Shown one piece after another: positions 36,182-46,898 of a DNA stretch of 64,000 nt. Each line of letters begins with the position of its first letter. Position 1 is the stretch's first letter. Both the position numbers and the translations under genes were made by a program. The stretch lies in the sequence record OL631481.1, one strand, 5' to 3'. The DNA comes from Escherichia phage ECML-183-2. Under the pieces are notes generated by a model. The model was not told the DNA's origin. It did not search any database and worked only from the letters and a program-made list of their open reading frames with translations.

Positions 36182-36208
36182 AAAAAGAAAGGGCGCTTTG
36201 TGCGCCCT
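36182..36208 (-). terminator. rho-independent terminator closing the cassette array
   Basis: rc reads AGGGCGC-loop-GCGCCCT + TTTCTTTTT. Confidence 0.6.
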
Positions 36209-36223
36209 GGTATGAAATGTTAT

Positions 36224-36607
36224 TTACTGATAAGCTGGATCGTTTGTTATATCAATCCAATGAGATAAATTAATTTTATTTTTTGCTTTCATTTTCTCGA
36301 TCAAACGTTCGGCTAATGTCTCGGAACGAATATAAACGTTTTCGCTAAAATCTTGCCCCGTTTCTTCGTCGATCATCTCACGATATTCGATTTTTCCGAT
36401 AAACGCGTGATTCAGCGCATAAGTTTTACCCGTGTACCAGTTATGCAAATGGATCTCACATTTATAATCATCGCTATACCCTTCGGTTGTTCTAACTTCA
36501 ACCAGGTCGCCTTTAAACACTGATAAGCACCACATAGGATCACGGTCTACAGCGCCGTTAAAGTCTTTACCGTTTACAGTCGCTGCCAGGTTGATGATAT
36601 TGCTCAT
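36224..36607 (-). CDS. hypothetical protein (127 aa)
   Basis: Track ORF trimmed to ATG after promoter; N-terminal track extension runs through leader. Confidence 0.5.
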   Translation of the reverse strand: MSNIINLAATVNGKDFNGAVDRDPMWCLSVFKGDLVEVRTTEGYSDDYKCEIHLHNWYTGKTYALNHAFIGKIEYREMIDEETGQDFSENVYIRSETLAERLIEKMKAKNKINLSHWIDITNDPAYQ

Positions 36608-36653
36608 GGTGATTCCTCGTTTACCGTTTAAAATGATTTGCCCTACGTGATAA

Positions 36654-36682
36654 ATAATAATGCAAGCGTGATCCGGTGTCAA
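36654..36682 (-). promoter_or_regulatory. sigma70-type early promoter (first cassette of array)
   Basis: rc reads TTGACA - 17 bp - TATTAT. Confidence 0.5.
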
Positions 36683-36856
36683 TAGGTAAAATTGTAAAGA
36701 TTTGATAGTTTGTTCCTTTGATGTTTTGTTGTTTGATAGGCGTTAGTTATCAATATATAGCGGGGTCTTCCGGTGATTATCTTCCCCTGCTCCCAGGTGC
36801 CGCCCGTTCAATAAGTATAACAAAAAATAGGACTATTGCAAGCCCTATTTATTATC

Positions 36857-36991
36857 TTAAAACCAGGTGCCAACCGTTTCCAATAGGTCACTGACTACAA
36901 GGACAACACTGATCAGCACATGTTCAACCATGAAAGGGATAAGCGCCAGCGTTGCTACTACGATCCCCATTGTGATGATTACCTTTCTCAT
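36857..36991 (-). CDS. small membrane protein (44 aa)
   Basis: Not in ORF track; hydrophobic; no clear RBS; coordinates hand-derived. Confidence 0.3.
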   Translation of the reverse strand: MRKVIITMGIVVATLALIPFMVEHVLISVVLVVSDLLETVGTWF

Positions 36992-37278
36992 TGTTGGCGG
37001 TTTACGTAAGCTTTACCGTTTACGGTCATCGGTATGGCCTCAAGGTCTGGATCTTCCTTAAGGTCGCGTGCAAGCTCACCGCAGCGGATACCCTCGAATC
37101 CGTAGTACTCTGTTGTGCCGTCCTGGAAAGTTTTAGCGGCAAGGCATAGGCGATAATTAACGCCGATCCGGTTTATTGCGTTGATATCGGTTAGCGTGAT
37201 GGATTCTGGCAACTCATTAGCCAGTACAGGCGCGTTAATACCAACAACCAGGGCAACTACTGCGATCATCTTTTTCAT
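36988..37278 (-). CDS. secreted protein with signal peptide (96 aa)
   Basis: MKKMIAVVALVVGINAPVLA signal-peptide-like. Confidence 0.5.
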   Translation of the reverse strand: MKKMIAVVALVVGINAPVLANELPESITLTDINAINRIGVNYRLCLAAKTFQDGTTEYYGFEGIRCGELARDLKEDPDLEAIPMTVNGKAYVNRQQ

Positions 37279-37332
37279 GCGTCTATCCTCTTCCTATTGC
37301 GTTTAATGGGGCGTTACCGCCCCGCTTATGGT

Positions 37333-37569
37333 TTATTGATTGATGTTATGATGAAAGTTATTTTCTTCAATAGCTTTTAAAATAAAAGCCGTGATCGCTT
37401 TCGTGTCTACTTGTTCGAACGTATCAGAATAAGCCCAATAATAATCATCCCCTACTTTCGGCGGGTAAACCTGGACAAGGAGATCGCCACCTGGTTGATC
37501 TATAAGCTCAACATGTAAGCCGGATGATTCAGCGGTTTTAACGGCGTTTAATACTGTTGCAATACTCAT
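37333..37569 (-). CDS. hypothetical protein (78 aa)
   Basis: ORF track; GC hairpin 37307-37322 downstream. Confidence 0.5.
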   Translation of the reverse strand: MSIATVLNAVKTAESSGLHVELIDQPGGDLLVQVYPPKVGDDYYWAYSDTFEQVDTKAITAFILKAIEENNFHHNINQ

Positions 37570-37613
37570 AATCTTTTCCTTTCTGATGTGGGGCGTTGCC
37601 GCCCCTTTGTTGA

Positions 37614-37913
37614 TTAGATCGCTGTTTCCAGTAGTTCGGCTAACGTCTTACCGCCTGATAGTTGGTCTAACGTTTGCTCTTCTGGCAAGAAATTAGCTGA
37701 TATTAATCCGACTTGATTTCCTTTGTGCCAATTAGCTTGACGGATGATTCCATCCTTTAAAGATTTTACCGCCATTGTGCAACCGTCGCCAAATGATTCA
37801 TTTTTATGATCCATTACTTCATAAGCGCCCAGCTTGCTGCTGTTAGGCACCATTAACGCGAATACATCACCAACAACCAGCTTTTCTACGGTAACAATAG
37901 CGATAGTTTCCAT
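37614..37913 (-). CDS. hypothetical protein (99 aa)
   Basis: ORF track; GC hairpin 37590-37605 downstream. Confidence 0.5.
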   Translation of the reverse strand: METIAIVTVEKLVVGDVFALMVPNSSKLGAYEVMDHKNESFGDGCTMAVKSLKDGIIRQANWHKGNQVGLISANFLPEEQTLDQLSGGKTLAELLETAI

Positions 37914-37930
37914 TTTACTTTCCTCATTAT

Positions 37931-37986
37931 CGGCGGCACCATTGCCGCCCTACGCATTAAATATAAGTTATCTAAGAGATTAGATC
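37931..37986 (-). promoter_or_regulatory. PeSL-like cassette (early promoter + 5' stem-loop)
   Basis: rc: TTGATC-17-TATATT then GGCGGCA-ATGG-TGCCGCC hairpin. Confidence 0.5.
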
Positions 37987-37991
37987 AAGGA

Positions 37992-38183
37992 TTATTTTGT
38001 AAAGATTACAGCTTCATCAAAATTTTCAACATAGTAAGCAAGCTCTTCATTTGCTGCAACCATTCCTAAAAGTTGGCTATAAGATAAACCTTTGATCCCT
38101 TCCTCGTTGTTTAATGCTTCGATGATTTCATCAACGGGCGCAAAAAACATGTTATTCGATTCCAGGTAGGAGATGGTTTTCAT
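37992..38183 (-). CDS. hypothetical protein (63 aa)
   Basis: ORF track; own cassette upstream. Confidence 0.5.
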   Translation of the reverse strand: MKTISYLESNNMFFAPVDEIIEALNNEEGIKGLSYSQLLGMVAANEELAYYVENFDEAVIFTK

Positions 38184-38204
38184 AATGTTTACCTTTTTCG
38201 GGGA

Positions 38205-38260
38205 GCGGCACCATTGCCGCCCTACGTGGTAAATATTAGCACACTGGCGATCTGTGTCAA
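38205..38260 (-). promoter_or_regulatory. PeSL-like cassette
   Basis: rc: TTGACA-16-TAATAT then GCGGCA-ATGG-TGCCGC hairpin. Confidence 0.55.
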
Positions 38261-38266
38261 TACTTT

Positions 38267-38653
38267 TTATTCAATATAAATCAAATTATCTTCACCAATG
38301 TAAGCCGACACGTTCGGCATAAACTTAGCTGCATTGGTTAGGCGGTTCGCCGTGTTAGTGGTGTATATTTCAGGGCGATCCCAAAAGCCTACGCCGTGAC
38401 CGTTACGGGTAAAATGTAAATCATTCCCGATCTGGTTGGCTGTTGCGCCGTCGCTCATTGCCTCAGAGATAGCGGCAAGATTAGCATTAATAAAGGCTGT
38501 TACATCCTGGGCGATCCGTTGATGGGCTTGATCTGAAAAATCATAATCAGTCATGTCATCTATAAAATTACCTTCATGATCCCTTGCGGATTCAGCAAAA
38601 ATAAAGGCTTCTTTATAACCGTTGATGATTTCAATAATGATTTCTGTTTTCAT
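38267..38653 (-). CDS. hypothetical protein (128 aa)
   Basis: ORF track; conserved-looking GHGVGFWDR segment, family unknown. Confidence 0.5.
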   Translation of the reverse strand: MKTEIIIEIINGYKEAFIFAESARDHEGNFIDDMTDYDFSDQAHQRIAQDVTAFINANLAAISEAMSDGATANQIGNDLHFTRNGHGVGFWDRPEIYTTNTANRLTNAAKFMPNVSAYIGEDNLIYIE

Positions 38654-38874
38654 GCTGTACGCTCGACAATAATAATAGTTTGCGGGATCTCGTTTTCTAC
38701 TACTAACAAGGCTTTTTTCTGTGTGATAGATATTTTAACACGTTGTAAAGTAGCGGTGAAATCTTTCATTTCATTATGCGCGGACTTCGTGCAATGCCAG
38801 ATCTCAGGCTTACCAACTTGTAAGCCGCGTAAAAATTCCGTTTTGCCTGTTTTGTTCGTGATCATTTGTTTCAC
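38650..38874 (-). CDS. hypothetical protein (74 aa)
   Basis: ORF track. Confidence 0.45.
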   Translation of the reverse strand: MKQMITNKTGKTEFLRGLQVGKPEIWHCTKSAHNEMKDFTATLQRVKISITQKKALLVVENEIPQTIIIVERTA

Positions 38875-38875
38875 C

Positions 38876-38980
38876 TTAACCGATACCGTGGGAAGATAGG
38901 ATCATGTTAGCCATAGTTGCAACCACTCCAACCGATAACGCCAGGCCCACTATTACAACCGTGAAAATTTTCTCTAACAT
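38876..38980 (-). CDS. small membrane protein (34 aa)
   Basis: Track ORF trimmed to ATG with GAGGG RBS; upstream part is hairpin read-through. Confidence 0.45.
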   Translation of the reverse strand: MLEKIFTVVIVGLALSVGVVATMANMILSSHGIG

Positions 38981-38996
38981 GATTCTACCCTCATTA

Positions 38997-39059
38997 ATGG
39001 GCGTTGCACCATTGCCCCGCCCTACGTAATACACTTTACCAGATAACAAATTATTGTCA
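38997..39059 (-). promoter_or_regulatory. PeSL-like cassette
   Basis: rc: TTGACA-16-TAAAGT then GC hairpin. Confidence 0.5.
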
Positions 39060-39124
39060 AGGTTTATTTTACTTCCCAAACGGAAAATTCACTGCGTGGC
39101 GGGAAGTATTCCCCGCCTTATTAA

Positions 39125-39295
39125 TTACTCTTCATCGTCGCCGTTATAGTATTCAATGCCGTTTTCATCGGTTACGGTGATGTTAACGCCACCGATAGCA
39201 ACACGATCACGGGCAAACGTCATAGCTTCATTTAAATCTTCAGACCAAAAAATATTGTGACCTTTGCGCGATACATAAAACATAGTCGGGATCAT
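39125..39295 (-). CDS. hypothetical protein (56 aa)
   Basis: Track ORF trimmed to internal ATG; GC hairpin 39097-39116 downstream. Confidence 0.45.
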   Translation of the reverse strand: MIPTMFYVSRKGHNIFWSEDLNEAMTFARDRVAIGGVNITVTDENGIEYYNGDDEE

Positions 39296-39318
39296 GATTT
39301 GTTTCTCTTCTGTTGTGA

Positions 39319-39379
39319 GCGGTGGACCATTCCGCCGCCCTATGTGGTAAACTTTACTACGTTGTTTGCCTGTTGTCAA
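39319..39379 (-). promoter_or_regulatory. PeSL-like cassette
   Basis: rc: TTGACA-17-TAAAGT then GGCGG-loop-CCGCC hairpin. Confidence 0.5.
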
Positions 39380-39380
39380 A

Positions 39381-39665
39381 TTATTTTTTAATGTTTTGCC
39401 CTACAAAATTGATCACTTCCTTAAGCTGTCTCTCTGTCATGATCGTACCTGGTAACTCTTCTTTAATTTCTTCCGGTAAATAGATATTACCGCGCCAGGT
39501 TAACAAACAACCGTTTTGATCTTCGCAGATAGAATAAGAAAACATCCACTCGCAATCATTTTCAAGCTCCCAAAAACACAAAAAGTCTTCTTTCCCTAAG
39601 TTTTCAACGGTTAAACATAATCCGCGACGTGCTGCATAATTAGTCAGGCTTTTTGTGATTTTCAT
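39381..39665 (-). CDS. hypothetical protein (94 aa)
   Basis: Track ORF trimmed to internal ATG. Confidence 0.5.
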   Translation of the reverse strand: MKITKSLTNYAARRGLCLTVENLGKEDFLCFWELENDCEWMFSYSICEDQNGCLLTWRGNIYLPEEIKEELPGTIMTERQLKEVINFVGQNIKK

Positions 39666-39686
39666 GATTTTTCTCTCTTCTTGTGA

Positions 39687-39742
39687 GCGGCACCATTGCC
39701 GCCCTACAAGATACATATTATCAGACTAGGCGGACTTGTCAA
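39687..39742 (-). promoter_or_regulatory. PeSL-like cassette
   Basis: rc: TTGACA-16-TAATAT then GCGGCA-ATGG-TGCCGC hairpin. Confidence 0.55.
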
Positions 39743-39743
39743 A

Positions 39744-39854
39744 CTATTTTTTCTTTTTCTTTGCTTCCAACCGTCTAAGGTTACGGCTTGACTTATTTCG
39801 CAAGGCGCTTAGATCGTCGTACCCTTTCCATGCTTGCATATCTTTCGGATTCAT
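39744..39854 (-). CDS. small basic protein (36 aa)
   Basis: Not in ORF track; AAGGGG RBS; hand-derived coordinates. Confidence 0.3.
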   Translation of the reverse strand: MNPKDMQAWKGYDDLSALRNKSSRNLRRLEAKKKKK

Positions 39855-39863
39855 GTTATCCCC

Positions 39864-40025
39864 TTACTTGTTAGCCGGATCATATACCAGGACCGCGCCG
39901 CTTGCTTTCACGCTTTCCGCTTCATAGTTGCGCAGATCGTTTTCTGTAAGGTTGAGCGCGATCACTTCCTCGATCTCAACGTCAGCGGCAAGGGCGATCT
40001 CTTTGATAATGTCTGTTGTTTTCAT
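39864..40025 (-). CDS. small acidic protein (53 aa)
   Basis: Not in ORF track; AAGGTG RBS; hand-derived coordinates. Confidence 0.35.
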   Translation of the reverse strand: MKTTDIIKEIALAADVEIEEVIALNLTENDLRNYEAESVKASGAVLVYDPANK

Positions 40026-40035
40026 AGTACGCACC

Positions 40036-40155
40036 TTATAAGATGATTGATAAGATAGTGATAACGAAAGCGATTATACTGATGGCAAATGTCATCTTTT
40101 TACCTTCGGATACTGCCGGATTTTCTACCGTGTATTCTACTGTGTACTTGCTCAT
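40036..40155 (-). CDS. small membrane protein (39 aa)
   Basis: Not in ORF track; C-terminal hydrophobic helix; directly after cassette. Confidence 0.35.
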   Translation of the reverse strand: MSKYTVEYTVENPAVSEGKKMTFAISIIAFVITILSIIL

Positions 40156-40178
40156 CGTGTAATCCTCTCGTTTGCTTT

Positions 40179-40235
40179 GGGAACTATTCCCGCCGCCTTA
40201 TGAATTAAATATACACTATCTCAAAATGATTGCAA
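40179..40235 (-). promoter_or_regulatory. PeSL-like cassette
   Basis: rc: TTGCAA-16-TATATT then GGGAA-TAG-TTCCC hairpin. Confidence 0.5.
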
Positions 40236-40252
40236 GCCTTTTTCTAAATTAT

Positions 40253-40537
40253 TTATGCAGTAAACAAACCATCATTTACAACGGCGGCGATGATCTCCCG
40301 TGCCATTGATTCAGGGAAAGGGGCGCTATAGTCCTGGCTTGTCTCATCGGTATCAGTGATCCAATGATAAGCTAACGAGTAAAAGCCTTTACTAACTGTT
40401 TTCAGTGAGATGATGATCACTCGGTCAAGCTTATTGGTGAATGTTGCCGTTAATGTGTTACCCTCCTGCGTCATGTTGGACAAGTAAGCGGGATCATTAA
40501 TCAGGGAAAACATTAGCACGGTGTTAGCTTTACTCAT
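40253..40537 (-). CDS. hypothetical protein (94 aa)
   Basis: Track ORF trimmed to internal ATG; the track ATG lies inside the hairpin loop. Confidence 0.5.
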   Translation of the reverse strand: MSKANTVLMFSLINDPAYLSNMTQEGNTLTATFTNKLDRVIIISLKTVSKGFYSLAYHWITDTDETSQDYSAPFPESMAREIIAAVVNDGLFTA

Positions 40538-40557
40538 GATTGCATCCTCAAAGGGGC

Positions 40558-40612
40558 GCGGCACCATTGCCGCCCTACACGATAACTATAACACAATGTA
40601 AAACAGGATCAA
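40558..40612 (-). promoter_or_regulatory. PeSL-like cassette
   Basis: rc: TTGATC-16-TATAGT then GCGGCA-ATGG-TGCCGC hairpin. Confidence 0.5.
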
Positions 40613-40815
40613 CCTTTATTTTTCCACGGTGTCAGCTTGTTAATCATTGGTGATAAATAGCGTTTACCAACGTAAAACAGTACGCCAACTGATGCAACGG
40701 CGGCGATCTCATGTAAGGAGGAAGGTCGCGCGGTGTCATAATAGGTACCAATAATAGCAATAGCGGCTACTGCGGCAATGTCTGTAATAATTTTTTCTTG
40801 TTTTGCGGTGATCAT
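40609..40815 (-). CDS. small membrane protein (68 aa)
   Basis: Track ORF trimmed to internal ATG; two hydrophobic segments. Confidence 0.5.
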   Translation of the reverse strand: MITAKQEKIITDIAAVAAIAIIGTYYDTARPSSLHEIAAVASVGVLFYVGKRYLSPMINKLTPWKNKG

Positions 40816-40838
40816 AATATTTACCTTTTTGTATGGTG

Positions 40839-40895
40839 GGGGAACTATTCCCCGCCTGATGTAATACAGTTTAACAGGTCCGGTTATGGTGTCAA
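40839..40895 (-). promoter_or_regulatory. PeSL-like cassette
   Basis: rc: TTGACA-15-TAAACT then GGGGAA-TAG-TTCCCC hairpin. Confidence 0.5.
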
Positions 40896-40901
40896 CCACT
40901 T

Positions 40902-41087
40902 TTAAAGATATTTTATATTGATAACGTTTTCAGGTTTAACCTTGTTGTGATGTGCATCAACATAGATCAAACCATCGTCAGAAAAGCCCAGGATCACGCC
41001 CTGCGCAATAAAACCGTATTCGTCACGGTAACGCACGGCTATTTTTAACGTTGCGTTGTAGGCTGTTTTAAGCTCGTTTAAAGTCAT
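40902..41087 (-). CDS. hypothetical protein (61 aa)
   Basis: ORF track. Confidence 0.45.
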   Translation of the reverse strand: MTLNELKTAYNATLKIAVRYRDEYGFIAQGVILGFSDDGLIYVDAHHNKVKPENVINIKYL

Positions 41088-41108
41088 TTTTGTTTATCCT
41101 CTACATGT

Positions 41109-41136
41109 AAAAAGAAAGGGCGCTTGGTGCGCCCTT
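41109..41136 (-). terminator. rho-independent terminator inside the array
   Basis: rc reads AAGGGCGC-ACCAA-GCGCCCTT + TCTTTTT. Confidence 0.6.
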
Positions 41137-41142
41137 GTTATG

Positions 41143-41289
41143 TTAATCCTCTAAATCCATCCAATTATATTTGTCACTCTTCCCGCGCTTTGTTTTATTA
41201 CGCTTGTCGCCTTTTCGGATCACTTCCTCGTTCCAGGCCTTGCGGATCTTGGAAGATTGAATTTTTTCTGCGCGATTAGATGTATTCAT
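41143..41289 (-). CDS. small basic protein (48 aa)
   Basis: Not in ORF track; AAGAGGA RBS; Lys/Arg-rich. Confidence 0.4.
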   Translation of the reverse strand: MNTSNRAEKIQSSKIRKAWNEEVIRKGDKRNKTKRGKSDKYNWMDLED

Positions 41290-41309
41290 TTTGTTTCCTC
41301 TTTATATGA

Positions 41310-41362
41310 GCGGCACCATTGCCGCTATATTATTAATTTAAACTGTTTTGTAAAATTGTCAA
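41310..41362 (-). promoter_or_regulatory. PeSL-like cassette
   Basis: rc: TTGACA-16-TAAATT then GCGGCA-ATGG-TGCCGC hairpin. Confidence 0.5.
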
Positions 41363-41368
41363 GGTTTA

Positions 41369-41722
41369 TCATTGATAAGAGCAAGCAAGGATCACGCCTG
41401 CAATATAAAGCCAATAATTTTCCCTTTCTCGTTGGATTTTATCATCGCTGCTATTCTCTTTAATGTATCCCCAGGATGTTAACAGGCGATCAATTTCCCA
41501 ATATTCGAAAGCGATATTGATATCTGATGGCAAGCCTTGTAACCATGATGCAAGTGCTTTAACAATACTATAATTAAAACGTGATTGGTTATCAGGGTAC
41601 CAGTACTCGGAATTAAAACGGTGCATCAATTCCGCGATCTTCTCTTTTTCGGTTGTAATACCGTAATCATTAAAATCGATAGCGGCAAGGATGTACTCTT
41701 TAATTGCATTTTGTGCTTTCAT
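41369..41722 (-). CDS. hypothetical protein (117 aa)
   Basis: ORF track. Confidence 0.5.
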   Translation of the reverse strand: MKAQNAIKEYILAAIDFNDYGITTEKEKIAELMHRFNSEYWYPDNQSRFNYSIVKALASWLQGLPSDINIAFEYWEIDRLLTSWGYIKENSSDDKIQRERENYWLYIAGVILACSYQ

Positions 41723-41741
41723 GGTCTTTCTCTCTTTTTGA

Positions 41742-41798
41742 GCGGGAACTATTCCCGCCCTACGTGTAACAGTTTACTAAAAATTAAATCCGTGTCAA
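41742..41798 (-). promoter_or_regulatory. PeSL-like cassette
   Basis: rc: TTGACA-16-TAAACT then GCGGGAA-TAG-TTCCCGC hairpin. Confidence 0.55.
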
Positions 41799-41801
41799 GC
41801 T

Positions 41802-42023
41802 TTATTTTGTTACTACCATTTGGTACCCTGTTTCAATGTTAGTAAATACTGTTATCCCGTCCTGGCGTTCACTCATTAGCATACAAGGCGCTAACATCCT
41901 TTCTACTGCCTTGCACTCATTGTAAACGGCGGTTATGTCTCCTGCGGCCTTGTCTTCTGTGGTGAATGTATCGTTTACGTAAACCTGACCAGCGACAACG
42001 GCGACAATAGCGAAAGTGATCAT
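41802..42023 (-). CDS. hypothetical protein (73 aa), shares MITFA 5' end with next-upstream gene
   Basis: ORF track; first ~20 nt of CDS plus RBS duplicated at 42245-42270. Confidence 0.5.
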   Translation of the reverse strand: MITFAIVAVVAGQVYVNDTFTTEDKAAGDITAVYNECKAVERMLAPCMLMSERQDGITVFTNIETGYQMVVTK

Positions 42024-42054
42024 GATGTTTCCTTGTTAGTAGTGGTTTCTCTTC

Positions 42055-42095
42055 TCTATAGCGCCCATTGTAAGGCGCTATAACGAAAAGTCAAC
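42055..42095 (-). promoter_or_regulatory. variant cassette (promoter overlapping TATAGCGCC hairpin)
   Basis: rc: TTGACT-16-TACAAT with 9-bp-stem hairpin overlapping. Confidence 0.4.
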
Positions 42096-42097
42096 GA

Positions 42098-42265
42098 TTA
42101 TTTTTTAAGGCTTAAAGTACCTAACTTGTCAGCATGACGCAGACCAGGGAAGATCCATTTGCCTGATTCATCTTTCACCGGGGCTTTAAGCGTAGCGCCC
42201 AGGTTGGCGGCGTTAACTTTACGTGCAACGTTGCGAGCGGCTTCACGGGTAGCGAAAGTGATCAT
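42098..42265 (-). CDS. small protein (55 aa) starting MITFA
   Basis: Not in ORF track; hand-derived; same 5' end as 41802..42023. Confidence 0.4.
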   Translation of the reverse strand: MITFATREAARNVARKVNAANLGATLKAPVKDESGKWIFPGLRHADKLGTLSLKK

Positions 42266-42289
42266 GATATTTTCCTCTTCTCTTTGTTA

Positions 42290-42351
42290 GGCGGTGGACC
42301 ATTCCGCCGCCTTGATGTAATACAGTTTACTTTATTTTTGCAGTATTGCAA
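42290..42351 (-). promoter_or_regulatory. PeSL-like cassette
   Basis: rc: TTGCAA-16-TAAACT then GGCGG-loop-CCGCC hairpin. Confidence 0.5.
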
Positions 42352-42357
42352 GCGGTT

Positions 42358-42570
42358 TTATGAAATAATCGTCAAAGTAAAATTGTAATCACCTGATTGA
42401 TACAATACTTTATCACCGAACGTTCCAACACGTTTAACATTGCAATATATACCCATAACACTTTTTACATCTTTGATATTCTTCACGCCTGTAATATCTT
42501 TATTAAAATGATCGTGATCAGAAAATAAAACTTGTTTTGCATTTTTCAACAAGGTGCGGATATTAGCCAT
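42358..42570 (-). CDS. hypothetical protein (70 aa)
   Basis: ORF track. Confidence 0.5.
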   Translation of the reverse strand: MANIRTLLKNAKQVLFSDHDHFNKDITGVKNIKDVKSVMGIYCNVKRVGTFGDKVLYQSGDYNFTLTIIS

Positions 42571-42595
42571 CGTGATAATCTCTCTTCTGTTGTGA

Positions 42596-42651
42596 GCGGC
42601 ACTATTGCCGCCCTACGTAATACAGTTTACTCTTTTTCTTTCCCGTGTCAA
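42596..42651 (-). promoter_or_regulatory. PeSL-like cassette
   Basis: rc: TTGACA-16-TAAACT then GCGGCA-ATAG-TGCCGC hairpin. Confidence 0.55.
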
Positions 42652-42660
42652 CAATCTTTT

Positions 42661-42888
42661 TCAGATTAATTCATCCAGGCATAACAGGCGATCAACGTTG
42701 AGATCGGTTAGGCTGATGGTTGGCACCTGGTAGGATTCGATGTACTCGACGCTCGCATATTCTCCAAAATTAGCAATAGCCCACTTATTCAAGATCTCAC
42801 ATACATCATTAATCTTTTTGTTTGTTACAACTGCTACAACCTGGGAACTGCCAACGGTGCCGGATACACGAACAATATTGATAGCCAT
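42661..42888 (-). CDS. hypothetical protein (75 aa)
   Basis: ORF track. Confidence 0.5.
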   Translation of the reverse strand: MAINIVRVSGTVGSSQVVAVVTNKKINDVCEILNKWAIANFGEYASVEYIESYQVPTISLTDLNVDRLLCLDELI

Positions 42889-42911
42889 AATCTTTAATCT
42901 CTCTGTTGTTG

Positions 42912-42970
42912 GCGGGAAACCATTTCCCGCCCTATGTGATACATCTTACACTAATTTTAAACGTTGTCAA
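42912..42970 (-). promoter_or_regulatory. PeSL-like cassette
   Basis: rc: TTGACA-16-TAAGAT then GCGGGAAA-TGG-TTTCCCGC hairpin. Confidence 0.55.
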
Positions 42971-42980
42971 CTGTTTTTTA

Positions 42981-43220
42981 TTACATTCCAACCATCGCGG
43001 CACGGATCGCAGTAGTGCTATATTTGAAACCGTCTGGAGTTTTATCTTGTCCAGTTTGTTCCAGAAAAAGCATCATATCCCGCGCCGCATCATTACGATT
43101 AGCATTAGCGTTAATAAAATCCAAGGCCAACCGATACAATGATTCATCGTTATTAATCCAAAGGCTTACATTCCAATGAGTTTTGTTTTTGTGACCGTTG
43201 TACATTTTAGATTTAGCCAT
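42981..43220 (-). CDS. hypothetical protein (79 aa)
   Basis: ORF track. Confidence 0.5.
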   Translation of the reverse strand: MAKSKMYNGHKNKTHWNVSLWINNDESLYRLALDFINANANRNDAARDMMLFLEQTGQDKTPDGFKYSTTAIRAAMVGM

Positions 43221-43244
43221 GATTTTTCTCTCTTTTTCAGTGAG

Positions 43245-43303
43245 GCGGGAAGTGTTCCCGCTCTCTATGTAATACAGTTTACTCTTTTTATTCGTGCTGT
43301 CAA
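43245..43303 (-). promoter_or_regulatory. PeSL-like cassette
   Basis: rc: TTGACA-16-TAAACT then GCGGGAA-CACT-TCCCGC hairpin. Confidence 0.55.
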
Positions 43304-43309
43304 TGCTTT

Positions 43310-43675
43310 TTATAAATCTTTTTTACGTTTTACATCGCTTGCATGACTGTATACAGTGATCCCATTGTCACGGCAAAAACGGGAAAGATACGCGCCGCGT
43401 GAAAATTCCTTGCCCTCAAGGTTGATAACCTTGCTAAATTCTTCCAGGGCGACGGTATCAAAATGATCACCATAGCCATATTGAAACGGAACGTTAACCA
43501 CCTCGATCAGTTTACCGCCGATCTCAACGTCAACCAGTAAAGAAAAATATGTGTTACCGTAGGACTGTTGAAACCAGCGACGGGCACTAATATGCACCGC
43601 CTCAATGCTGGATAATTCAATTTTAGCCGTGTTAGCCAGGGTAGCATAAGCGGAAACATTGATATTAATAGCCAT
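43310..43675 (-). CDS. hypothetical protein (121 aa)
   Basis: ORF track. Confidence 0.5.
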   Translation of the reverse strand: MAININVSAYATLANTAKIELSSIEAVHISARRWFQQSYGNTYFSLLVDVEIGGKLIEVVNVPFQYGYGDHFDTVALEEFSKVINLEGKEFSRGAYLSRFCRDNGITVYSHASDVKRKKDL

Positions 43676-43701
43676 GGTGTCACTCTCTCTTTTTGGTTAG
43701 T

Positions 43702-43753
43702 GGGAAGTATTCCCGATAAAAGTTATTATGCTTATACTATCACTCATTGTCAA
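43702..43753 (-). promoter_or_regulatory. PeSL-like cassette
   Basis: rc: TTGACA-17-CATAAT then GGGAA-TAC-TTCCC hairpin. Confidence 0.5.
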
Positions 43754-43772
43754 TAGTATAAGACTAAAACTT

Positions 43773-43952
43773 TTAACGATAATCATTATAGGCTTTATTG
43801 ACCTGGCGAATGTAACATTCGAAAGCAAGATCAATGTATTCGTATTCACGCACATAATCACCATAGGTCACTACATACATTTTTAAAGTTTCCTCATAAG
43901 CCAGGAGGATCGAATCTAAACCTATAATCTCAGTTTTTGCAATGATAGCCAT
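43773..43952 (-). CDS. hypothetical small protein (59 aa)
   Basis: Not in ORF track; AAAAGG RBS; hand-derived coordinates. Confidence 0.4.
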   Translation of the reverse strand: MAIIAKTEIIGLDSILLAYEETLKMYVVTYGDYVREYEYIDLAFECYIRQVNKAYNDYR

Positions 43953-43974
43953 GATGTTAACCTTTTATTGTTGG

Positions 43975-44029
43975 CGGCACCATTGCCGCCCTACGTGATA
44001 AACTATACCAGAAGTTTAAACAGTGTCAA
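43975..44029 (-). promoter_or_regulatory. PeSL-like cassette
   Basis: rc: TTGACA-15-TATAGT then GCGGCA-ATGG-TGCCGC hairpin. Confidence 0.5.
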
Positions 44030-44035
44030 CCGTTT

Positions 44036-44398
44036 TTATTCGTAAATTTTACCGCTTTCGGCCCATACCATAACGCGGCGCATACTATCCCAAGTGTTTT
44101 GATCCAGGTTTAAGCCGTGCAACTCTTCGGTACTTCCCAGACCAGGTACCGCTTTGTTGTAAGTCGCATATAAGCGCCCTTGATACTCATACGCCAGAGT
44201 AAGATCCGTTTGAATCATCTTTTTAAGCATAGCATTAAGCATCATATTAGCGGCATGTTGATCACGTTTTAGCGGTAACATGTCAATAAGGGCGCGATAA
44301 GCTGAAACATGAATATCAACCGTTTCACGTGGTAAATTTTTCATATCATCGCGGAAGGACACCAGGTTTAACATGATAGTATTGATTTGCTTGCTCAT
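44036..44398 (-). CDS. hypothetical protein (120 aa)
   Basis: ORF track; AAGGG RBS. Confidence 0.5.
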   Translation of the reverse strand: MSKQINTIMLNLVSFRDDMKNLPRETVDIHVSAYRALIDMLPLKRDQHAANMMLNAMLKKMIQTDLTLAYEYQGRLYATYNKAVPGLGSTEELHGLNLDQNTWDSMRRVMVWAESGKIYE

Positions 44399-44419
44399 TG
44401 TGTTACCCTTTTTTGTTTT

Positions 44420-44480
44420 GGCGGGGAAGTATTCCGCCGCCCTATGTGATACATCTTATCAGATTAAAAAACGTTGTCAA
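44420..44480 (-). promoter_or_regulatory. PeSL-like cassette
   Basis: rc: TTGACA-16-TAAGAT then GGCGG-loop-CCGCC hairpin. Confidence 0.55.
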
Positions 44481-44488
44481 GAATATTT

Positions 44489-44584
44489 TTAGAAAATAAT
44501 AGCCGCTACTACAATCCAAAATGGAACGGCTAGAATGATAGCGTTAATCGTTCCAACCGTCAAGCTATTTTCTTTATTAATCAT
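44489..44584 (-). CDS. small membrane protein (31 aa)
   Basis: Not in ORF track; AAGAGG RBS; hydrophobic C-terminus. Confidence 0.35.
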   Translation of the reverse strand: MINKENSLTVGTINAIILAVPFWIVVAAIIF

Positions 44585-44613
44585 TGTAAGCCTCTTGCAT
44601 AATTTCACTATGA

Positions 44614-44670
44614 GCGGCACCATTGCCGCCCTACGTGGTAAATATTATGCCAGTGGCGGCGATATGTCAA
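44614..44670 (-). promoter_or_regulatory. PeSL-like cassette
   Basis: rc: TTGACA-17-TAATAT then GCGGCA-ATGG-TGCCGC hairpin. Confidence 0.55.
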
Positions 44671-45224
44671 AGACTATTTTCAAAGTTTTCTAGTGCGATC
44701 CTTTTTTCTTCCTCTGTCGGCTGATAATCAGGAAAAGCATCAACACACAACAACGGCGGGATCTCTTCGTACTCTTCCTCTTCCGTTGTCTCCTCGTCTT
44801 CCTCCTGGGCTATGGCTGCAATTTTGGCTAATTTTCTTTCAGCTTGAATCAATTTACCATCAAGTACGTTTTTTGCCATGTTGTAAGCGGTCCAGGTGAT
44901 GCGCTTACTTTCCAGTGCTTGATCAAGCGCCGCTATCTTGCTGGGGTATTCATCCAGGACACGAAAAGCCGGATCAACTTTGTACAAAGGATTATCTTTC
45001 GCGCCGTCGCTCGCATCTTCCGCACTGGATAAATCAGCGTTACCATTTGCCAGCCAGCCAGGGCGCACATAACGCGCTTTTACGTTGCCGTTACTACGTG
45101 CTAATCTGTTACCTATTTGCTCACCACTATATCCCGTGGATTCATCGATAAGATGATCGGGAATGATGCGCGGATCATCTGCTTCATGTTTTACCCAAGA
45201 CTGGATCACATATTCGCGGCCCAT
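44667..45224 (-). CDS. hypothetical protein (185 aa), acidic C-terminus
   Basis: Track ORF trimmed to ATG; no cassette of its own, coupled to upstream gene. Confidence 0.5.
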   Translation of the reverse strand: MGREYVIQSWVKHEADDPRIIPDHLIDESTGYSGEQIGNRLARSNGNVKARYVRPGWLANGNADLSSAEDASDGAKDNPLYKVDPAFRVLDEYPSKIAALDQALESKRITWTAYNMAKNVLDGKLIQAERKLAKIAAIAQEEDEETTEEEEYEEIPPLLCVDAFPDYQPTEEEKRIALENFENSL

Positions 45225-45225
45225 A

Positions 45226-45483
45226 TTAACCACCTTTTTTCAACAATTGGCATACTTTAAAAAGACTTGCTGAATCCTTGCAAGGGTAGAAAGATGTACG
45301 ATAATCACGTACGCCAACCTTGCGGATCTCGATGTTCTCGCATGTTGTTTGATCAAAGATATTTATTTCATCACGCCCCCTTATATAAACATAGTGGGGA
45401 TGTATTAACGCATATTTTGCTAATCTGTAAAAAGCGTTATCTTTGAACGCGATCACGTGACCTTTTAATTTGATGTAAAACAT
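45226..45483 (-). CDS. hypothetical protein (85 aa)
   Basis: ORF track. Confidence 0.5.
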   Translation of the reverse strand: MFYIKLKGHVIAFKDNAFYRLAKYALIHPHYVYIRGRDEINIFDQTTCENIEIRKVGVRDYRTSFYPCKDSASLFKVCQLLKKGG

Positions 45484-45501
45484 TCTACCACCTTACAAAT
45501 A

Positions 45502-45556
45502 GCGGGAACTATTCCCGCTTTATGTAACATATTAACAAATTATTCGTTAATGTCAA
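45502..45556 (-). promoter_or_regulatory. PeSL-like cassette
   Basis: rc: TTGACA-16-TAATAT then GCGGGAA-TAG-TTCCCGC hairpin. Confidence 0.55.
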
Positions 45557-45559
45557 ACC

Positions 45560-45832
45560 TTAAAGCAAAAACGCTACATCTTGCGCTTTTAGTGTAGTAT
45601 CAACCATTTTCGGGCTTTTATAATCAACAAAGCGCGCGGTTTTTTCAATAGCGAAACCGAGATAATCTTGTTTATTGAATTTACATTCTTTCTTAAATGT
45701 TTCCCGCGCCACGGTGATCGCTGCGTCCAGGGATAAACGCCCGTCAATGTTGATATTTGCGAAAGATCCGCCACCGCTCATAGGTTTACCAGTGGTGCCA
45801 GCTACGATCATTGTTGCGCTATATGATGCCAT
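45560..45832 (-). CDS. hypothetical protein (90 aa)
   Basis: Track ORF trimmed to internal ATG. Confidence 0.5.
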   Translation of the reverse strand: MASYSATMIVAGTTGKPMSGGGSFANINIDGRLSLDAAITVARETFKKECKFNKQDYLGFAIEKTARFVDYKSPKMVDTTLKAQDVAFLL

Positions 45833-45857
45833 GATTATAATCTCTCTTCTGTTGTGA

Positions 45858-45918
45858 GCGGCTGGACCATTCCGCCGCCCTATGTGATACATCTTATCAG
45901 GTTGTTGTTTGTTGTCAA
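45858..45918 (-). promoter_or_regulatory. PeSL-like cassette
   Basis: rc: TTGACA-16-TAAGAT then GGCGG-loop-CCGCC hairpin. Confidence 0.55.
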
Positions 45919-45924
45919 TACTTT

Positions 45925-46122
45925 TTATTCTATTCCTGCAATTTGATTAACGCGCTTGCATTTTGTAGCGTGCTGGTCTTCTGTAATGACTCCCATTTCT
46001 AACAGGGAATCAATGAAAGATAAAACCGTTTCATGATCATCCTGGGGATGACTGAACTCAGTAAAACCGTTTACCACGACGCTGATTTGTCCTGCTTTCG
46101 CTACTATGTGCAATGTTGCCAT
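45925..46122 (-). CDS. hypothetical protein (65 aa)
   Basis: Track ORF trimmed to internal ATG with GGAG RBS. Confidence 0.5.
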   Translation of the reverse strand: MATLHIVAKAGQISVVVNGFTEFSHPQDDHETVLSFIDSLLEMGVITEDQHATKCKRVNQIAGIE

Positions 46123-46143
46123 GATTTTAACTCCAAATAATGA

Positions 46144-46200
46144 GCGGCACCATTGCCGCCCTACGTGGTAAATATTATGCCGCCACCTGGCGAACGTCAA
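46144..46200 (-). promoter_or_regulatory. PeSL-like cassette (last/upstream-most of array)
   Basis: rc: TTGACG-17-TAATAT then GCGGCA-ATGG-TGCCGC hairpin 46144-46159. Confidence 0.55.
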
Positions 46201-46309
46201 TCACTTTTTCAATCTTTTTTATTTTCTTTTTGCTTGCTATATATAAAAGAAAGGGCTATCATCTTTCTACCGCGCCAACCAGGGCGCACATCAAAGAAAG
46301 GGCGATACC

Positions 46310-46858: not shown

Positions 46859-46898
46859 ACCTTATCAAATAAGAATCAATCTCATTTATAAACCTAAA

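Follow-up and report, generated by a model that had tools for sequence, protein, structure and literature searches.

Promoter-hairpin cassettes form the probable hyperplastic early-gene region of the coliphage ECML-183-2

Promoter-early-stem-loop (PeSL) cassettes of T4-type phages are described systems that the locus reported here resembles. In all described T4-type PeSL classes, the stem-loop lies in the −35/−10 spacer, over the −10 element, or upstream of the promoter, and the upstream stem-loop has been assayed as a terminator (PMC2839356, PMC4122927). Arbiol et al. found that the GC-rich stem-loop of RB49 PeSL211/210 reduced expression of downstream lacZ to the same degree as rrnB T1 did (PMC2839356). 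RNase E attacks an RNA more slowly when its 5' end is base-paired (review PMC3997798, citing Emory 1992, Bouvet & Belasco 1992). Cassettes of this kind are already known from T4-type phages; the array described here is a variant from another phage lineage, Phapecoctavirus (Stephanstirmvirinae, rV5/phi92-like), which has no T4-type affiliation. Like PeSL regions, it is a hyperplastic block with small ORFs of unknown function and with indel or replacement breakpoints at its units. The T4-type stem-loop sits within or ahead of the promoter; the array hairpin, by contrast, lies downstream of the −10 element. The layout of cassette 12, with the −10 in the hairpin loop, resembles an RB49 PeSL. Model R1 of the units gave no match in the RB49 hyperplastic region, and the units are thus not homologous to RB49 PeSLs. 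The PeSL likeness proposed in the initial annotation thus stands for the hyperplastic block and its breakpoints, but not for homology, hairpin position (which is reversed), or T4-type affiliation. In function, the array is most likely a PeSL-like system, but one with an evolutionary origin separate from that of the T4-type PeSLs and with another layout.

The window analyzed is a 64,000-nt stretch of Escherichia phage ECML-183-2 (OL631481.1). On its minus strand, 23 units serve 32 small genes between 36.2 and 46.2 kb (Table 1), in agreement with the 23 promoter and stem-loop cassettes annotated initially. The order of a unit is TTGACA, 16-17 nt, TAnnnT, about 10 nt, a GC-rich hairpin, an A/C-rich linker, a Shine-Dalgarno (SD) sequence, and ATG. 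Such a unit had been claimed for every small gene; it precedes 23 of the 32, while the remaining nine either share a transcript with another gene or have just a hairpin ahead of them. A covariance model (CM) of the unit, searched over the 64 kb with filters off, gave 21 minus-strand matches scoring 38-79 bits (37913-46203), a single weak match of 23 bits at 36617-36685, and nothing above 19.4 bits outside the array. No second such array exists in the genome; in tuntematon, 22 of 23 model matches fell inside the array. Promoter-like sites numbered 69, against 37.1 ± 6.9 in shuffles. The GC excess of the block over its flanks exists but is small (0.413 vs 0.384; 0.403 once hairpins were masked). 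The block is most likely a hyperplastic early-gene region of a Phapecoctavirus-type coliphage, made of stereotyped expression cassettes.

Table 1. Features of the array, all on the minus strand. −35 positions are those of the first base of the box; CM scores are in bits and hairpin energies in kcal/mol; TM, transmembrane.
Feature	Position	−35 at	Serves	CM	Details
Whole array	36190..46203				23 promoter units, 32 small genes, 3 hairpin-only elements, 2 intrinsic terminators
Cassette 1	46124..46203	46200	g01	60.6	TTGACG-17-TAATAT; hairpin GGGCGGCA-ATGG-TGCCGCTC, −14.4
Cassette 2	45838..45921	45918	g02	69.0	TTGACA-16-TAAGAT; hairpin GGGCGGCGGA-ATGG-TCCAGCCGCTC, −16.6
Cassette 3	45483..45559	45556	g03, g04	58.5	TTGACA-16-TAATAT; hairpin AGCGGGAA-TAG-TTCCCGCT, −12.4
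Cassette 4	44594..44673	44670	g05	60.4	
Cassette 5	44401..44483	44480	g06	65.2	
Cassette 6	43954..44032	44029	g07	73.9	
Cassette 7	43681..43756	43753	g08	48.9	short hairpin GGGAA-TAC-TTCCC, −5.5
Cassette 8	43226..43306	43303	g09	56.5	
Cassette 9	42892..42973	42970	g10	69.7	
Cassette 10	42576..42654	42651	g11	78.7	closest to consensus
Cassette 11	42271..42354	42351	g12	55.3	−35 TTGCAA
Cassette 12, variant	42024..42097	42094	g13		TTGACT-16-TACAAT; hairpin TATAGCGCC...GGCGCTATA
Cassette 13	41722..41801	41798	g14	69.1	
Cassette 14	41290..41365	41362	g15	54.0	
Cassette 15	40817..40898	40895	g17	57.9	
Cassette 16	40538..40615	40612	g18	51.7	−35 TTGATC
Cassette 17	40161..40238	40235	g19, g20, g21	37.8	−35 TTGCAA; weak hairpin, −7.8
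Cassette 18	39667..39745	39742	g22	73.2	
Cassette 19	39299..39382	39379	g23	65.6	
Cassette 20	38981..39063	39060	g24, g25, g26	62.4	
Cassette 21	38185..38263	38260	g27	72.2	
Cassette 22	37913..37991	37988	g28	57.3	−35 TTGATC
Cassette 23, chimeric	36617..36685	36682	g32	23.2	
Canonical intrinsic terminator within array	41116..41136				AAGGGCGCACCAAGCGCCCTT + TCTTTTT; before g16
Intrinsic terminator at array end	36190..36208				AGGGCGCACAAAGCGCCCT + TTCTTTTT
Hairpin-only element	39098..39117				GGCGGGGAATACTTCCCGCC; after g23
Hairpin-only intercistronic element	37590..37605				GGGGCGGCAACGCCCC; before g29; no promoter, no U-tract
Hairpin-only intercistronic element	37307..37324				CGGGGCGGTAACGCCCCA; before g30
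g01	45925..46122				65 aa; pN/pS 0.12
g02	45560..45832				90 aa
g03	45226..45483				85 aa
g04	44667..45224				185 aa; acidic, poly-Glu tail; no own cassette
g05	44489..44584				31 aa; membrane peptide, one predicted TM helix
g06	44036..44398				120 aa; kept in phi92 (77%), FV3 (68%)
g07	43773..43952				59 aa
g08	43310..43675				121 aa
g09	42981..43220				79 aa; Pfam DUF7249
g10	42661..42888				75 aa
g11	42358..42570				70 aa; missing in nieznany
g12	42098..42265				55 aa; basic
g13	41802..42023				73 aa
g14	41369..41722				117 aa
g15	41143..41289				48 aa; basic; Pfam Phage_1_1 (T7 Gp1.1 family)
g16	40902..41087				61 aa; no own promoter; terminator precedes
g17	40609..40815				68 aa
g18	40253..40537				94 aa
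g19	40036..40155				39 aa; C-terminal TM helix
g20	39864..40025				53 aa; no own cassette
g21	39744..39854				36 aa; basic; no own cassette
g22	39381..39665				94 aa
g23	39125..39295				56 aa
g24	38876..38980				34 aa; TM peptide; identity 94-97% in phi92, FV3
g25	38650..38865				71 aa; no own cassette
g26	38267..38653				128 aa; motif FTRNGHGVGFWDR invariant
g27	37992..38183				63 aa; variable module, in 2/5 close relatives
g28	37614..37913				99 aa
g29	37333..37569				78 aa; hairpin-only leader
g30	36988..37278				96 aa; signal-peptide-like N-terminus; hairpin-only leader
g31	36857..36991				44 aa; TM
g32	36224..36607				127 aa; Pfam Phage_30_8 (T4 Gp30.8 family)

A cassette starts with an A/T-rich stretch (71% A+T in the 30 nt upstream of the promoters vs 61% for the window), followed by a near-consensus host sigma70 promoter. 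TTGACA is perfect in 17 of 23 units, 17 copies have a −35/−10 spacer of 16 nt and the other 6 one of 17 nt, and a TGn extended −10 is present in 9 of 23. The initial transcribed sequence is conserved across cassettes as GTATyACrTA. After the hairpin, an unstructured, A/C-rich linker of 17-25 nt carries the SD sequence and leads to the start codon of the small gene. Among 21 paralogs, conservation is limited to the functional boxes (−35, 0.87; −10, 0.72; 5' arm, 0.83; loop, 0.79), against 0.31 for the spacer; the initial transcribed sequence scores 0.66. For 32 orthologous cassette pairs, the values are 0.94 (−35), 0.91 (−10), 0.90 (initial transcribed sequence), 0.92/0.91 (stems), 0.84 (loop), and 0.89 (linker). 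In orthologs, conservation of the boxes, initial transcribed sequence, stems, and linker is on a par with that of codon positions 1+2 (0.94); the spacer (0.76) and the region upstream (0.78) have drifted about as much as third codon positions (0.78). Sequence and conservation footprint together show the promoters, and promoter type alone suggests that they are early; transcription start sites (TSS) and mRNA half-lives we infer. Gene conversion among copies (concerted evolution) could mimic the signal of purifying selection on the shared segments.

The hairpin follows the promoter in 21 of 23 units, and 19 of these fold at −11 to −17 kcal/mol (z about −3 to −5 vs shuffles). The GC-rich stem is typically 7-11 bp. 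Its core begins 10-12 nt past the −10, at about +3 to +6 of the predicted transcript, with 0-5 unpaired nt at the mRNA 5' end depending on TSS position. The exceptions are cassette 12, with the −10 in its hairpin loop, and cassette 23, where a recombination junction has cut the hairpin short. The initial annotation had noted that stem sequences vary while pairing is kept, and covariance analysis bore this out. Paired cells made up 84.5%, against 45-60% when partners were slid, and double-change cells numbered 45, against 27.1 ± 3.0 in shuffles (0/500 shuffles as high). The 121 cassettes from six phages contain 46 distinct hairpins: the basal pair is A-U, G.U, or G-C, pair 7 changes from C:G to G:C, and some copies have an outright stem replacement (e.g., GGGGCG-ACAAG-CGCCCC). 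The layout in phi92 and FV3 is identical, with other stems. In a strand-asymmetry comparison bearing on RNA-level selection, the sense fold was more stable in 61 vs 23 of 86 cases, but G.U counts were equal on both strands and the copies are related. In the 8 nt past the stem, T occurs 0.67 times on average and in no copy five times or more. Because a U-tract is lacking, the sequence argues that the hairpin is a 5' leader structure and not a terminator.

We somewhat favor the view that the units are early expression cassettes, in which the 5' hairpin leader protects the mRNA and the shared segments allow gene exchange. The 5'-terminal hairpin most likely stabilizes or insulates short mRNAs. 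Unmodified host RNA polymerase would fire about 23 promoters right after DNA entry, yielding short mono- to tricistronic mRNAs and, because most units lack a terminator, read-through transcripts. The base-paired 5' end would shield the mRNA from RppH/RNase E decay, which depends on the 5' end. Within read-through RNA, the hairpin would serve as an intercistronic insulator and stabilizer that leaves the SD sequence free. The 15-30 bp common to all copies (−10, initial transcribed sequence, and hairpin) provide homologous recombination sites; hence a module made up of a leader, its gene, and the promoter that follows can be deleted, inserted, or exchanged. Comparative genomics shows such exchange within and between genera, always into a working expression context.

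In the classical PeSL reading, the hairpins would be terminators or attenuators that limit upstream read-through, each gene being expressed mainly from its own promoter. The hairpins are indeed GC-rich, stable, and intergenic, hairpin-only elements lie between promoterless genes, and the RB49 stem-loop matched rrnB T1; given that lacZ reduction, the array hairpins may attenuate to some extent. An efficient terminator downstream of its own promoter, however, would abort every transcript from that promoter, and T4-type PeSL stem-loops are all upstream of or inside the promoter (PMC4122927). The lack of a U-tract also counts against termination, as do the block's two canonical terminators, which differ from the cassette hairpins in having a T-run and other stems. 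Internal terminators had been annotated in the plural; one canonical terminator (41136-41116) is internal and the other (36208-36190) ends the block. Overall, we judge this reading unlikely.

There is a slimmer chance that the hairpins are RNA-processing sites or identity tags. A ribonuclease or phage RNA-binding protein recognizing them would cut read-through RNA into monocistronic units or mark phage early mRNAs so that they are selectively translated or protected while the host is shut off. The loop consensus AAUGGU / AAUAGU and its flanks are conserved in three genera, the hairpin position is uniform in every predicted early mRNA, and the A/U-rich promoter sequence upstream, if read through, would probably be a good RNase E substrate. 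Against this, stems of 7-11 bp are too short for RNase III, the loops differ (ATGG, TAG, TAC, GTGGT, ACAAG), no Rfam family matched even at E <= 1, and no RNA-binding protein was found in the window.

An improbable reading places the function in DNA: the inverted repeat (+4 to +28) and GTATyACrTA would bind a dimeric phage or host repressor for joint shut-off of all early promoters. Roadblock operators typically sit at such a position, both the loop and the initial transcribed sequence are conserved in paralogs and orthologs alike, and the strand-asymmetry counts do not favor RNA over DNA. But 46 stems of 5-11 bp with loops of 3-5 nt are too varied for one sequence-specific protein, which would not accept C:G pairs swapped for G:C or whole stems exchanged for other symmetrical ones. 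No candidate regulator was found, and none of the 32 proteins has a DNA-binding Pfam domain. Finally, plain repeats that arose when one gene cassette was recently duplicated in tandem, the promoter being the only selected function, would explain similar copies in tandem, but are effectively refuted by the ortholog and paralog footprints, with spacers at background and boxes and stems conserved. Flanking genes that are mutually unrelated (mean identity 10%) and a layout kept across three genera with different stems also count against them.

The exchange proposed for the expression cassettes was examined by synteny comparison with relatives, as the initial annotation had suggested. Breakpoints fell in cassettes in 17 of 27 cases, against 7.4 ± 2.3 expected (P about 4e-4), an enrichment partly due to cassettes occupying most intergenic space. 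Four chimeric junctions were resolved, one of them an inter-genus gene swap with phi92; in three, the crossover lay in the hairpin or in the −10 and initial transcribed sequence. The crossover partners were cassette 21 at junction Ex1 (tuntematon lacks g27), cassette 18 in the 1.7-kb deletion of nieznany (Ex2), cassette 10 in the deletion of a relative (Ex3), and cassette 22 in two events. g32 shares 98% identity with phi92 gp248 but is missing in five close relatives. In a three-way alignment, cassette 23 is a Phapecoctavirus promoter up to TTATCACGTAGGGC, where the hairpin is cut off, and then a phi92 gp248-type leader. A 125-nt indel breakpoint vs DE16 and tuntematon lies at the hairpin-only element after g23. 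The promoter-hairpin units are thus gene-shuffling junctions, as with PeSLs.

The cargo is real coding sequence under purifying selection (pooled pN/pS 0.13), and all 32 proteins were assigned to PHROGs of unknown function. The earlier statement that they have no recognizable domains is nearly right, since three match Pfam families, also of unknown function. The host-takeover or anti-defense role suggested for them is a guess that gained no supporting result, and no known anti-defense domain was found in the array proteins. A confident structure model was obtained for g26, with no solved-structure match found. Only 20 of the 32 genes are common to all five relatives. Hydropathy confirms the annotated membrane or secreted candidates, with g05, g19, g24, and g31 as membrane candidates and a signal-peptide-like N-terminus in g30. 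Conserved Fur-box-like palindromes flank the array on both sides.

The window was 95-97% identical to the ~150-kb coliphages DE16, KKP 3954, tuntematon, ESCO13, and ZCKP1 (Phapecoctavirus, Stephanstirmvirinae). Between 36.2 and 46.2 kb, the minus strand carries 32 small genes (31-185 aa; g01-g32, numbered from high to low coordinate) and 23 promoter units. The order within a unit is an A/T-rich upstream segment, TTGACA, a 16-17 nt spacer, TAnnnT, GTATyACrTA, a GC-rich hairpin, an A/C-rich linker with a Shine-Dalgarno (SD) sequence, and ATG. The -35 hexamer was perfect (TTGACA) in 17 of the 23 units, a TGn extended -10 was present in nine, and the 30 nt upstream of the promoters had an A+T content of 71%. 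Across 35-48 kb, 69 promoter-like sites were observed, against 37.1 ± 6.9 in shuffled sequences. A covariance model of the cassette (R1) was built from 21 copies and run without filters over the whole 64-kb window. It returned 21 copies at 38-79 bits and a weak 22nd copy; outside these copies, the maximum score in the window was 19.4 bits. With the variant 23rd unit, the promoter and hairpin array described in the initial annotation was confirmed. The remaining nine genes lack their own unit and are either co-transcribed with the upstream gene, located behind a hairpin only, or, in the case of g16, located behind a true terminator. The coordinates are listed in the table.

Features of the array and its flanks (window positions unless another sequence is named).
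Feature	Position	Strand	Remark
Cassette copies found by R1 (21)	37913-46203	minus
22nd copy (R1)	36617-36685		weak
23rd unit, variant	42024-42097	minus	-10 sits in the hairpin loop
Hairpin-only elements	39098-39117, 37590-37605, 37307-37324
Hairpin plus U-rich tract	41116-41136, 36190-36208		intrinsic terminators
Five genes absent from nieznany	39687-37953	minus
g11	42358-42570	minus	70 aa; ortholog, L001 10921-11133
g15	41143-41289	minus	48 aa; ortholog, L003 8574-8720
Shared start of g12 and g13	42251-42265, 42009-42023	minus	first 15 nt, ATGATCACTTTCGCT (MITFA)
Palindrome, four copies	46839-46944		upstream of array, 29-nt spacing
Palindrome, two copies	34947-34965, 35126-35144		downstream of array, gene-free stretch
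Untranslated stretch, ~0.8 kb	around 46579-47166
72-nt direct repeats	46957-47028, 47095-47166		A/T-rich
Gene-free stretch, ~1.6 kb	~34600-36200		downstream of array
Counterpart of phi92 right end	36223-35540		by synteny
Counterpart of phi92 left end	34749-33071		by synteny
88-aa gene	46310-46576	plus	PHROG 19316
180-aa NADAR-domain protein gene	47385-47927	minus	Pfam PF08719, E = 1.6e-34
tuntematon cassette outside its array	L008 18265-18344 (record ~39264-39343)		5' of TerC-like gene

A hairpin followed 21 of the 23 promoters, and 19 of these folded at -11 to -17 kcal/mol, with z scores of about -3 to -5 against shuffles. The core stem begins 10-12 nt 3' of the -10 in the 21 units. Assuming the predicted transcription start 6-8 nt after the -10, the stem would start at about +3 to +6 and end at about +28, leaving an unpaired 5' tail of 0-5 nt; where position 8 is G, the stem would reach the first nucleotide. 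The linker between hairpin and start codon is 17-25 nt long and unstructured, and the SD is left uncovered. No match to Rfam 15 was obtained at gathering thresholds in the window or at E <= 1 in the array block, and a tRNA scan of the window found none.

A consensus structure from a MAFFT alignment was dropped in favor of the covariance model because the 3' arm was out of register between hairpin subtypes. A joint search of the window and five close relatives yielded 121 cassettes, in which standard pairs filled 84.5% of pair cells, compared with 45-60% when the partner column was slid. Both sides of a pair were changed in 45 cells (27.1 ± 3.0 in shuffles) and none of 500 shuffles reached the observed covariation score, figures that are inflated by related sequences and by the model-fitted alignment, as the tool itself warns. 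Because of this inflation, and because R1 misregistered the apical pair (pair 53-78), each distinct leader was folded separately. The resulting 46 distinct hairpins nearly all had stems of 7-11 bp at a constant offset. Their basal pair is A-U, G.U, or G-C, pair 7 switches between C:G and G:C, and apical insertions remain complementary; one stem is wholly different (GGGGCG-ACAAG-CGCCCC). The earlier statement that the stem sequence varies while pairing is kept is correct. Sense and antisense folds and G.U counts were also compared, to tell RNA-level from DNA-level selection, and the comparison did not favor the RNA level over the DNA level.

Among the 21 paralogs, identity was 0.87 in the -35, 0.83 in the 5' arm, 0.79 in the loop, and 0.72 in the -10, and the spacer, at 0.31, was at background. 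Orthologous cassette pairs (n = 32) were then compared from phiWec179, SKA64, phi92, and FV3. Identity was 0.94 in the -35, 0.91 in the -10, 0.90 in the initial transcribed region, 0.92 and 0.91 in the two stem arms, 0.89 in the linker/SD, and 0.94 at codon positions 1+2. The corresponding values were 0.76 for the promoter spacer and 0.78 for both the upstream 30 nt and codon position 3. As read from sequence, this pattern is the footprint expected from a working promoter and a leader under selection, although gene conversion between copies may have added to the pattern. A simple tandem repeat was rejected, since spacers and genes are unrelated among copies.

Gene content of the block differs among relatives, with 20 of the 32 genes common to all five. 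Relative to these genomes, 17 of 27 distinct synteny breakpoints in the block fell in cassettes, which occupy 27.5% of its length; the expectation was 7.4 ± 2.3 (P ~4e-4), an enrichment to be read with the caveat that most intergenic space consists of cassettes. Three events were resolved to the nucleotide: g27 is absent from tuntematon, and g11 and, separately, a run of five genes are absent from nieznany. In each event, the relative keeps one chimeric cassette composed of the promoter of the upstream copy and the leader of the downstream copy. Two of the crossovers lay within the shared hairpin, and the remaining one in the -10 plus initial transcribed sequence. The fourth event took place between genera: none of the five close relatives has g32, which is 98% identical to phi92 gp248, and the g32 cassette matches the Phapecoctavirus promoter up to TTATCACGTAGGGC and the phi92 leader from there on. 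Taken together, these comparisons show, at the level of predicted elements, that the units are promoters, that selection keeps the hairpin paired and at a constant position in the leader, and that the units are recombination junctions. In addition, g12 and g13 share their first 15 nt and then diverge, so that a recombination junction may lie here within 5' coding sequence and not in a cassette.

The cassette was found in 151 phage records, all of them rV5-like genomes of ~137-155 kb. R1 matched 15 sites in phi92 (Justusliebigvirus) and five in FV3 (Vequintavirus), where the stems differ and the layout is the same. In the nearly complete tuntematon genome, 22 of 23 R1 matches lay within a single array. 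Its sole cassette outside the array is placed directly 5' of a gene for a TerC-like integral membrane protein, inside a long plus-strand operon. A search of 5,426 E. coli genomes gave no match, and a host origin of the cassette was rejected. The cassette also occurs, at up to 97.5% identity, in GenBank MG065650 (B15), MG065656 (C3), and MG065674 (A140), unannotated records of 141-151 kb labeled 'Campylobacter phage' with host C. jejuni. These genomes resemble rV5/phi92-like coliphages, so the host label or the sample may be wrong.

For rV5, which belongs to the same phage supergroup as the present phage, 33 TTGACA-type promoters have been tabulated, each as a 46-nt window that stops 7 nt past the -10 (Kropinski et al., 2013, PMC3606486, Table S4). 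The accessible part of the text and supplement of PMC3606486 makes no mention of the hairpin, the cassette nature of the sites, or recombination at them. A Phapecoctavirus genome paper lists only nine promoters, and current genome records miss those of the array. In the Phapecoctavirus and rV5-like literature searched, with the PVP-SE1 and phi92 genome papers outside the search, prior description of the cassettes was confined to promoter lists, and no rV5-like phage transcriptome came to light.

In RB49 and phi1 (Krischvirus), promoter-early stem-loop cassettes (PeSLs) were defined as pairings of a sigma70 promoter and a stem-loop that are concentrated in hyperplastic regions (Arbiol et al., 2010, PMC2839356). 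Their stem-loop, which was assayed as a terminator, lies mostly between the -35 and -10 or overlaps the -10, and recombination between PeSLs gives indels and mini-circles (PMC2839356). In PST/T4 and nt-1/KVP40, the stem-loop is just 5' of the promoter; this extension of PeSLs covered T4-like phages only (Comeau et al., 2014, PMC4122927). The resemblance to PeSLs proposed for the array holds on several points. As in RB49/phi1, an A/T-rich upstream segment, a near-consensus sigma70 promoter, an adjacent GC-rich stem-loop, an SD, and ATG lie within an intergenic unit of ~70-90 bp; the elements cluster where small ORFs of unknown function form a hyperplastic region; and close relatives have their indel or replacement junctions in the units, the crossovers being in or beside the stem-loop. 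As in PST/T4 and nt-1/KVP40, the promoter and stem-loop form composite motifs; their sequence varies from one phage group to another, they are associated with variable genes, and they include degraded 'half' elements, here three hairpin-only sites.

The T4-type context, and with it the implied family membership, did not stand. The phage belongs to Stephanstirmvirinae, unlike RB49 (Straboviridae), and R1 found nothing over 50 kb of RB49 including its hyperplastic region (best score, 17.4 bits). RB49 intergenic regions, read directly, contain TTGACA-GGGGATC...GATCCCC-TATAAT and similar sequences, with the stem-loop in the -35/-10 spacer or the -10 within its loop; the PeSL's own transcripts would thus be without it. 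In the array, the stem-loop is neither upstream of nor within the promoter. The order is reversed, promoter and then hairpin, and the hairpin would be transcribed from its own promoter; the RB49 layout occurs in a single copy, the variant 23rd unit. On the basis of the RB49 layout and the R1 scores, homology to RB49 PeSLs was rejected, and the elements are analogous to PeSLs. PeSL-like behavior of a non-homologous array in rV5/phi92-like phages suggests convergent evolution. The proposal for PeSLs was that T4-family phages use them to shuffle accessory genes; among large lytic phages in general, repeated promoter-leader units may serve to keep a pool of fast-turnover early genes that can be expressed at whatever site they reach.

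A terminator or attenuator role for the hairpin would accord with the assay of RB49 PeSLs. However, the 8 nt 3' of the stem contained a mean of 0.67 T, and no copy had five or more, so that there is no U-tract; a hairpin with a U-rich tract was present at two sites only. An efficient terminator at the site of the hairpin would also abort the transcripts of its own promoter, which argues for a 5' leader structure, as the initial annotation had held. With the promoter ahead of the hairpin, the roles in recombination and expression are set apart from termination, the role assumed for PeSLs. The best-supported reading is that the hairpin provides a base-paired 5' end that would shield short mRNAs from attack by RppH and RNase E. 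On read-through RNA, it would insulate the cistrons, and the unstructured linker would allow this without occlusion of the SD. Because the promoters are of host type, immediate-early timing would be expected. The T7 gene 10 leader likewise has a 5' hairpin. The principle of 5'-end protection has been reviewed (PMC3997798), and the leaders of E. coli ompA and papA carry 5'-terminal stabilizing stem-loops (Emory, 1992; Bouvet and Belasco, 1992, via PMC3997798). Like these, the array leaders have a stable hairpin at most a few nt from the predicted 5' end, and the unstructured leader and SD behind it leave the ribosome-binding site free. Unlike these single-gene leaders, the hairpin, with its putative function, is part of a repeated, recombining cassette of ~20 consecutive genes, which makes a testable case for 5'-hairpin stabilization over ~20 natural mRNAs. 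The terminator or attenuator role, a protein operator role, and a role as processing site or tag were all scored lower than 5'-end protection. An RNase III site was rejected because the stems are too short, and an N4-type hairpin promoter because a complete sigma70 promoter is present.

The small ORFs evolve as coding sequences, with a pooled pN/pS of 0.13 that includes ORFs of 34-44 aa, and all 32 belong to PHROG families of unknown function. Pfam matches were obtained for three genes (g32, T4 Gp30.8 family; g15, T7 Gp1.1 family; g09, DUF7249), none of known function, and four to six of the 32 products are membrane or secreted candidates. PDB sequence searches with four cargo proteins and one profile were empty. 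g26 has 80 unnamed homologues with an invariant FTRNGHGVGFWDR motif and a confidently predicted structure (pLDDT 96.6, pTM 0.90). The model matched no solved fold, and the predicted fold also occurs in uncharacterized proteins of Xanthomonas, Burkholderia, and Synechococcus phages. An anti-defense role of the cargo is neither supported nor excluded by the Pfam, PHROG, PDB, or g26 model results. In the Phapecoctaviruses, which are in wide use as candidates for therapy, the array is the most variable gene pool, with 32 uncharacterized putative early proteins, and the place to seek host-takeover or anti-defense candidates; its cassettes offer ready insertion sites and compact, presumably strong expression units for phage engineering. 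Two names given to orthologs are implausible: 'phosphoribosylpyrophosphate synthetase' for that of g11 in tuntematon and 'TDP-4-keto-6-deoxy-D-glucose transaminase' for that of g15, a T7 Gp1.1-like protein, in SKA64.

The array is flanked by a 19-bp palindrome, AATGAGAATnATTCTCATT, of which the window contains six copies against 0.14 expected. Four copies fit the E. coli Fur 7-1-7 box at 13-14 of 15 positions. The palindrome positions are kept in phi92, with one copy inside its terminal repeat, as well as in five Phapecoctavirus relatives; the remaining ~130 kb of tuntematon contained no copy. The equivalent array of phi92 (gp225-gp248) abuts an annotated 343-bp terminal repeat. By synteny with the phi92 ends, a physical genome terminus is predicted at ~34.8-35.5 kb; the phi92 terminal-repeat sequence itself is not conserved here. 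The palindromes and repeats could be a replication origin, an operator set, or a region that provides insulation or halts DNA entry, comparable to the T5 injection stop signal.

The last of these options invites comparison with the first-step-transfer (pre-early) region and injection stop signal of T5 (bioRxiv 10.1101/866236). As in T5, a terminal block of ~8% of the genome, if the synteny-based terminus is accepted, contains poorly conserved small genes with host-type promoters, and its bounding conserved untranslated region is rich in direct repeats and in palindromes resembling sites of a host DNA-binding protein. These sites are DnaA boxes in T5 and Fur-like boxes here, and the terminal repeat is ~10 kb in T5 versus 343 bp in phi92. 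By this analogy, the array would be a terminal 'pre-early' domain of ~12 kb (~8% of the genome) between the predicted genome end and the untranslated repeats, forming an entry-coupled or insulated first expression stage delimited by Fur instead of DnaA, with the 5' hairpin marking pre-early mRNAs. We consider this very unlikely. If true, rV5/phi92-like myoviruses would have a T5-like first stage, entry-coupled or insulated, and delimited by the host protein Fur.

The untranslated stretch upstream of the array has a strong rightward (plus-strand) promoter, TTGACA-17-TATACT, whose spacer holds the hairpin AAGCCCAGGGATCGGGCTT, as in the RB49 PeSL layout. The palindrome cluster and the two direct repeats follow this promoter, and the tuntematon record has a repeat_region annotated at the counterpart. 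In its layout, the stretch resembles a replication origin or control region. A divergent gene of 88 aa, assigned to a PHROG of unknown function and with no Pfam match, lies between the array and the palindromes. Its product contains, by eye, a helix-turn-helix-like stretch, GGTVHQVASATGLKVETVLNL, and could therefore be a regulator acting on the adjacent palindromes. Just past the divergent region is the gene for a NADAR-domain protein. NADAR enzymes reverse ADP-ribosylation, which makes this gene a candidate counter-defense gene.
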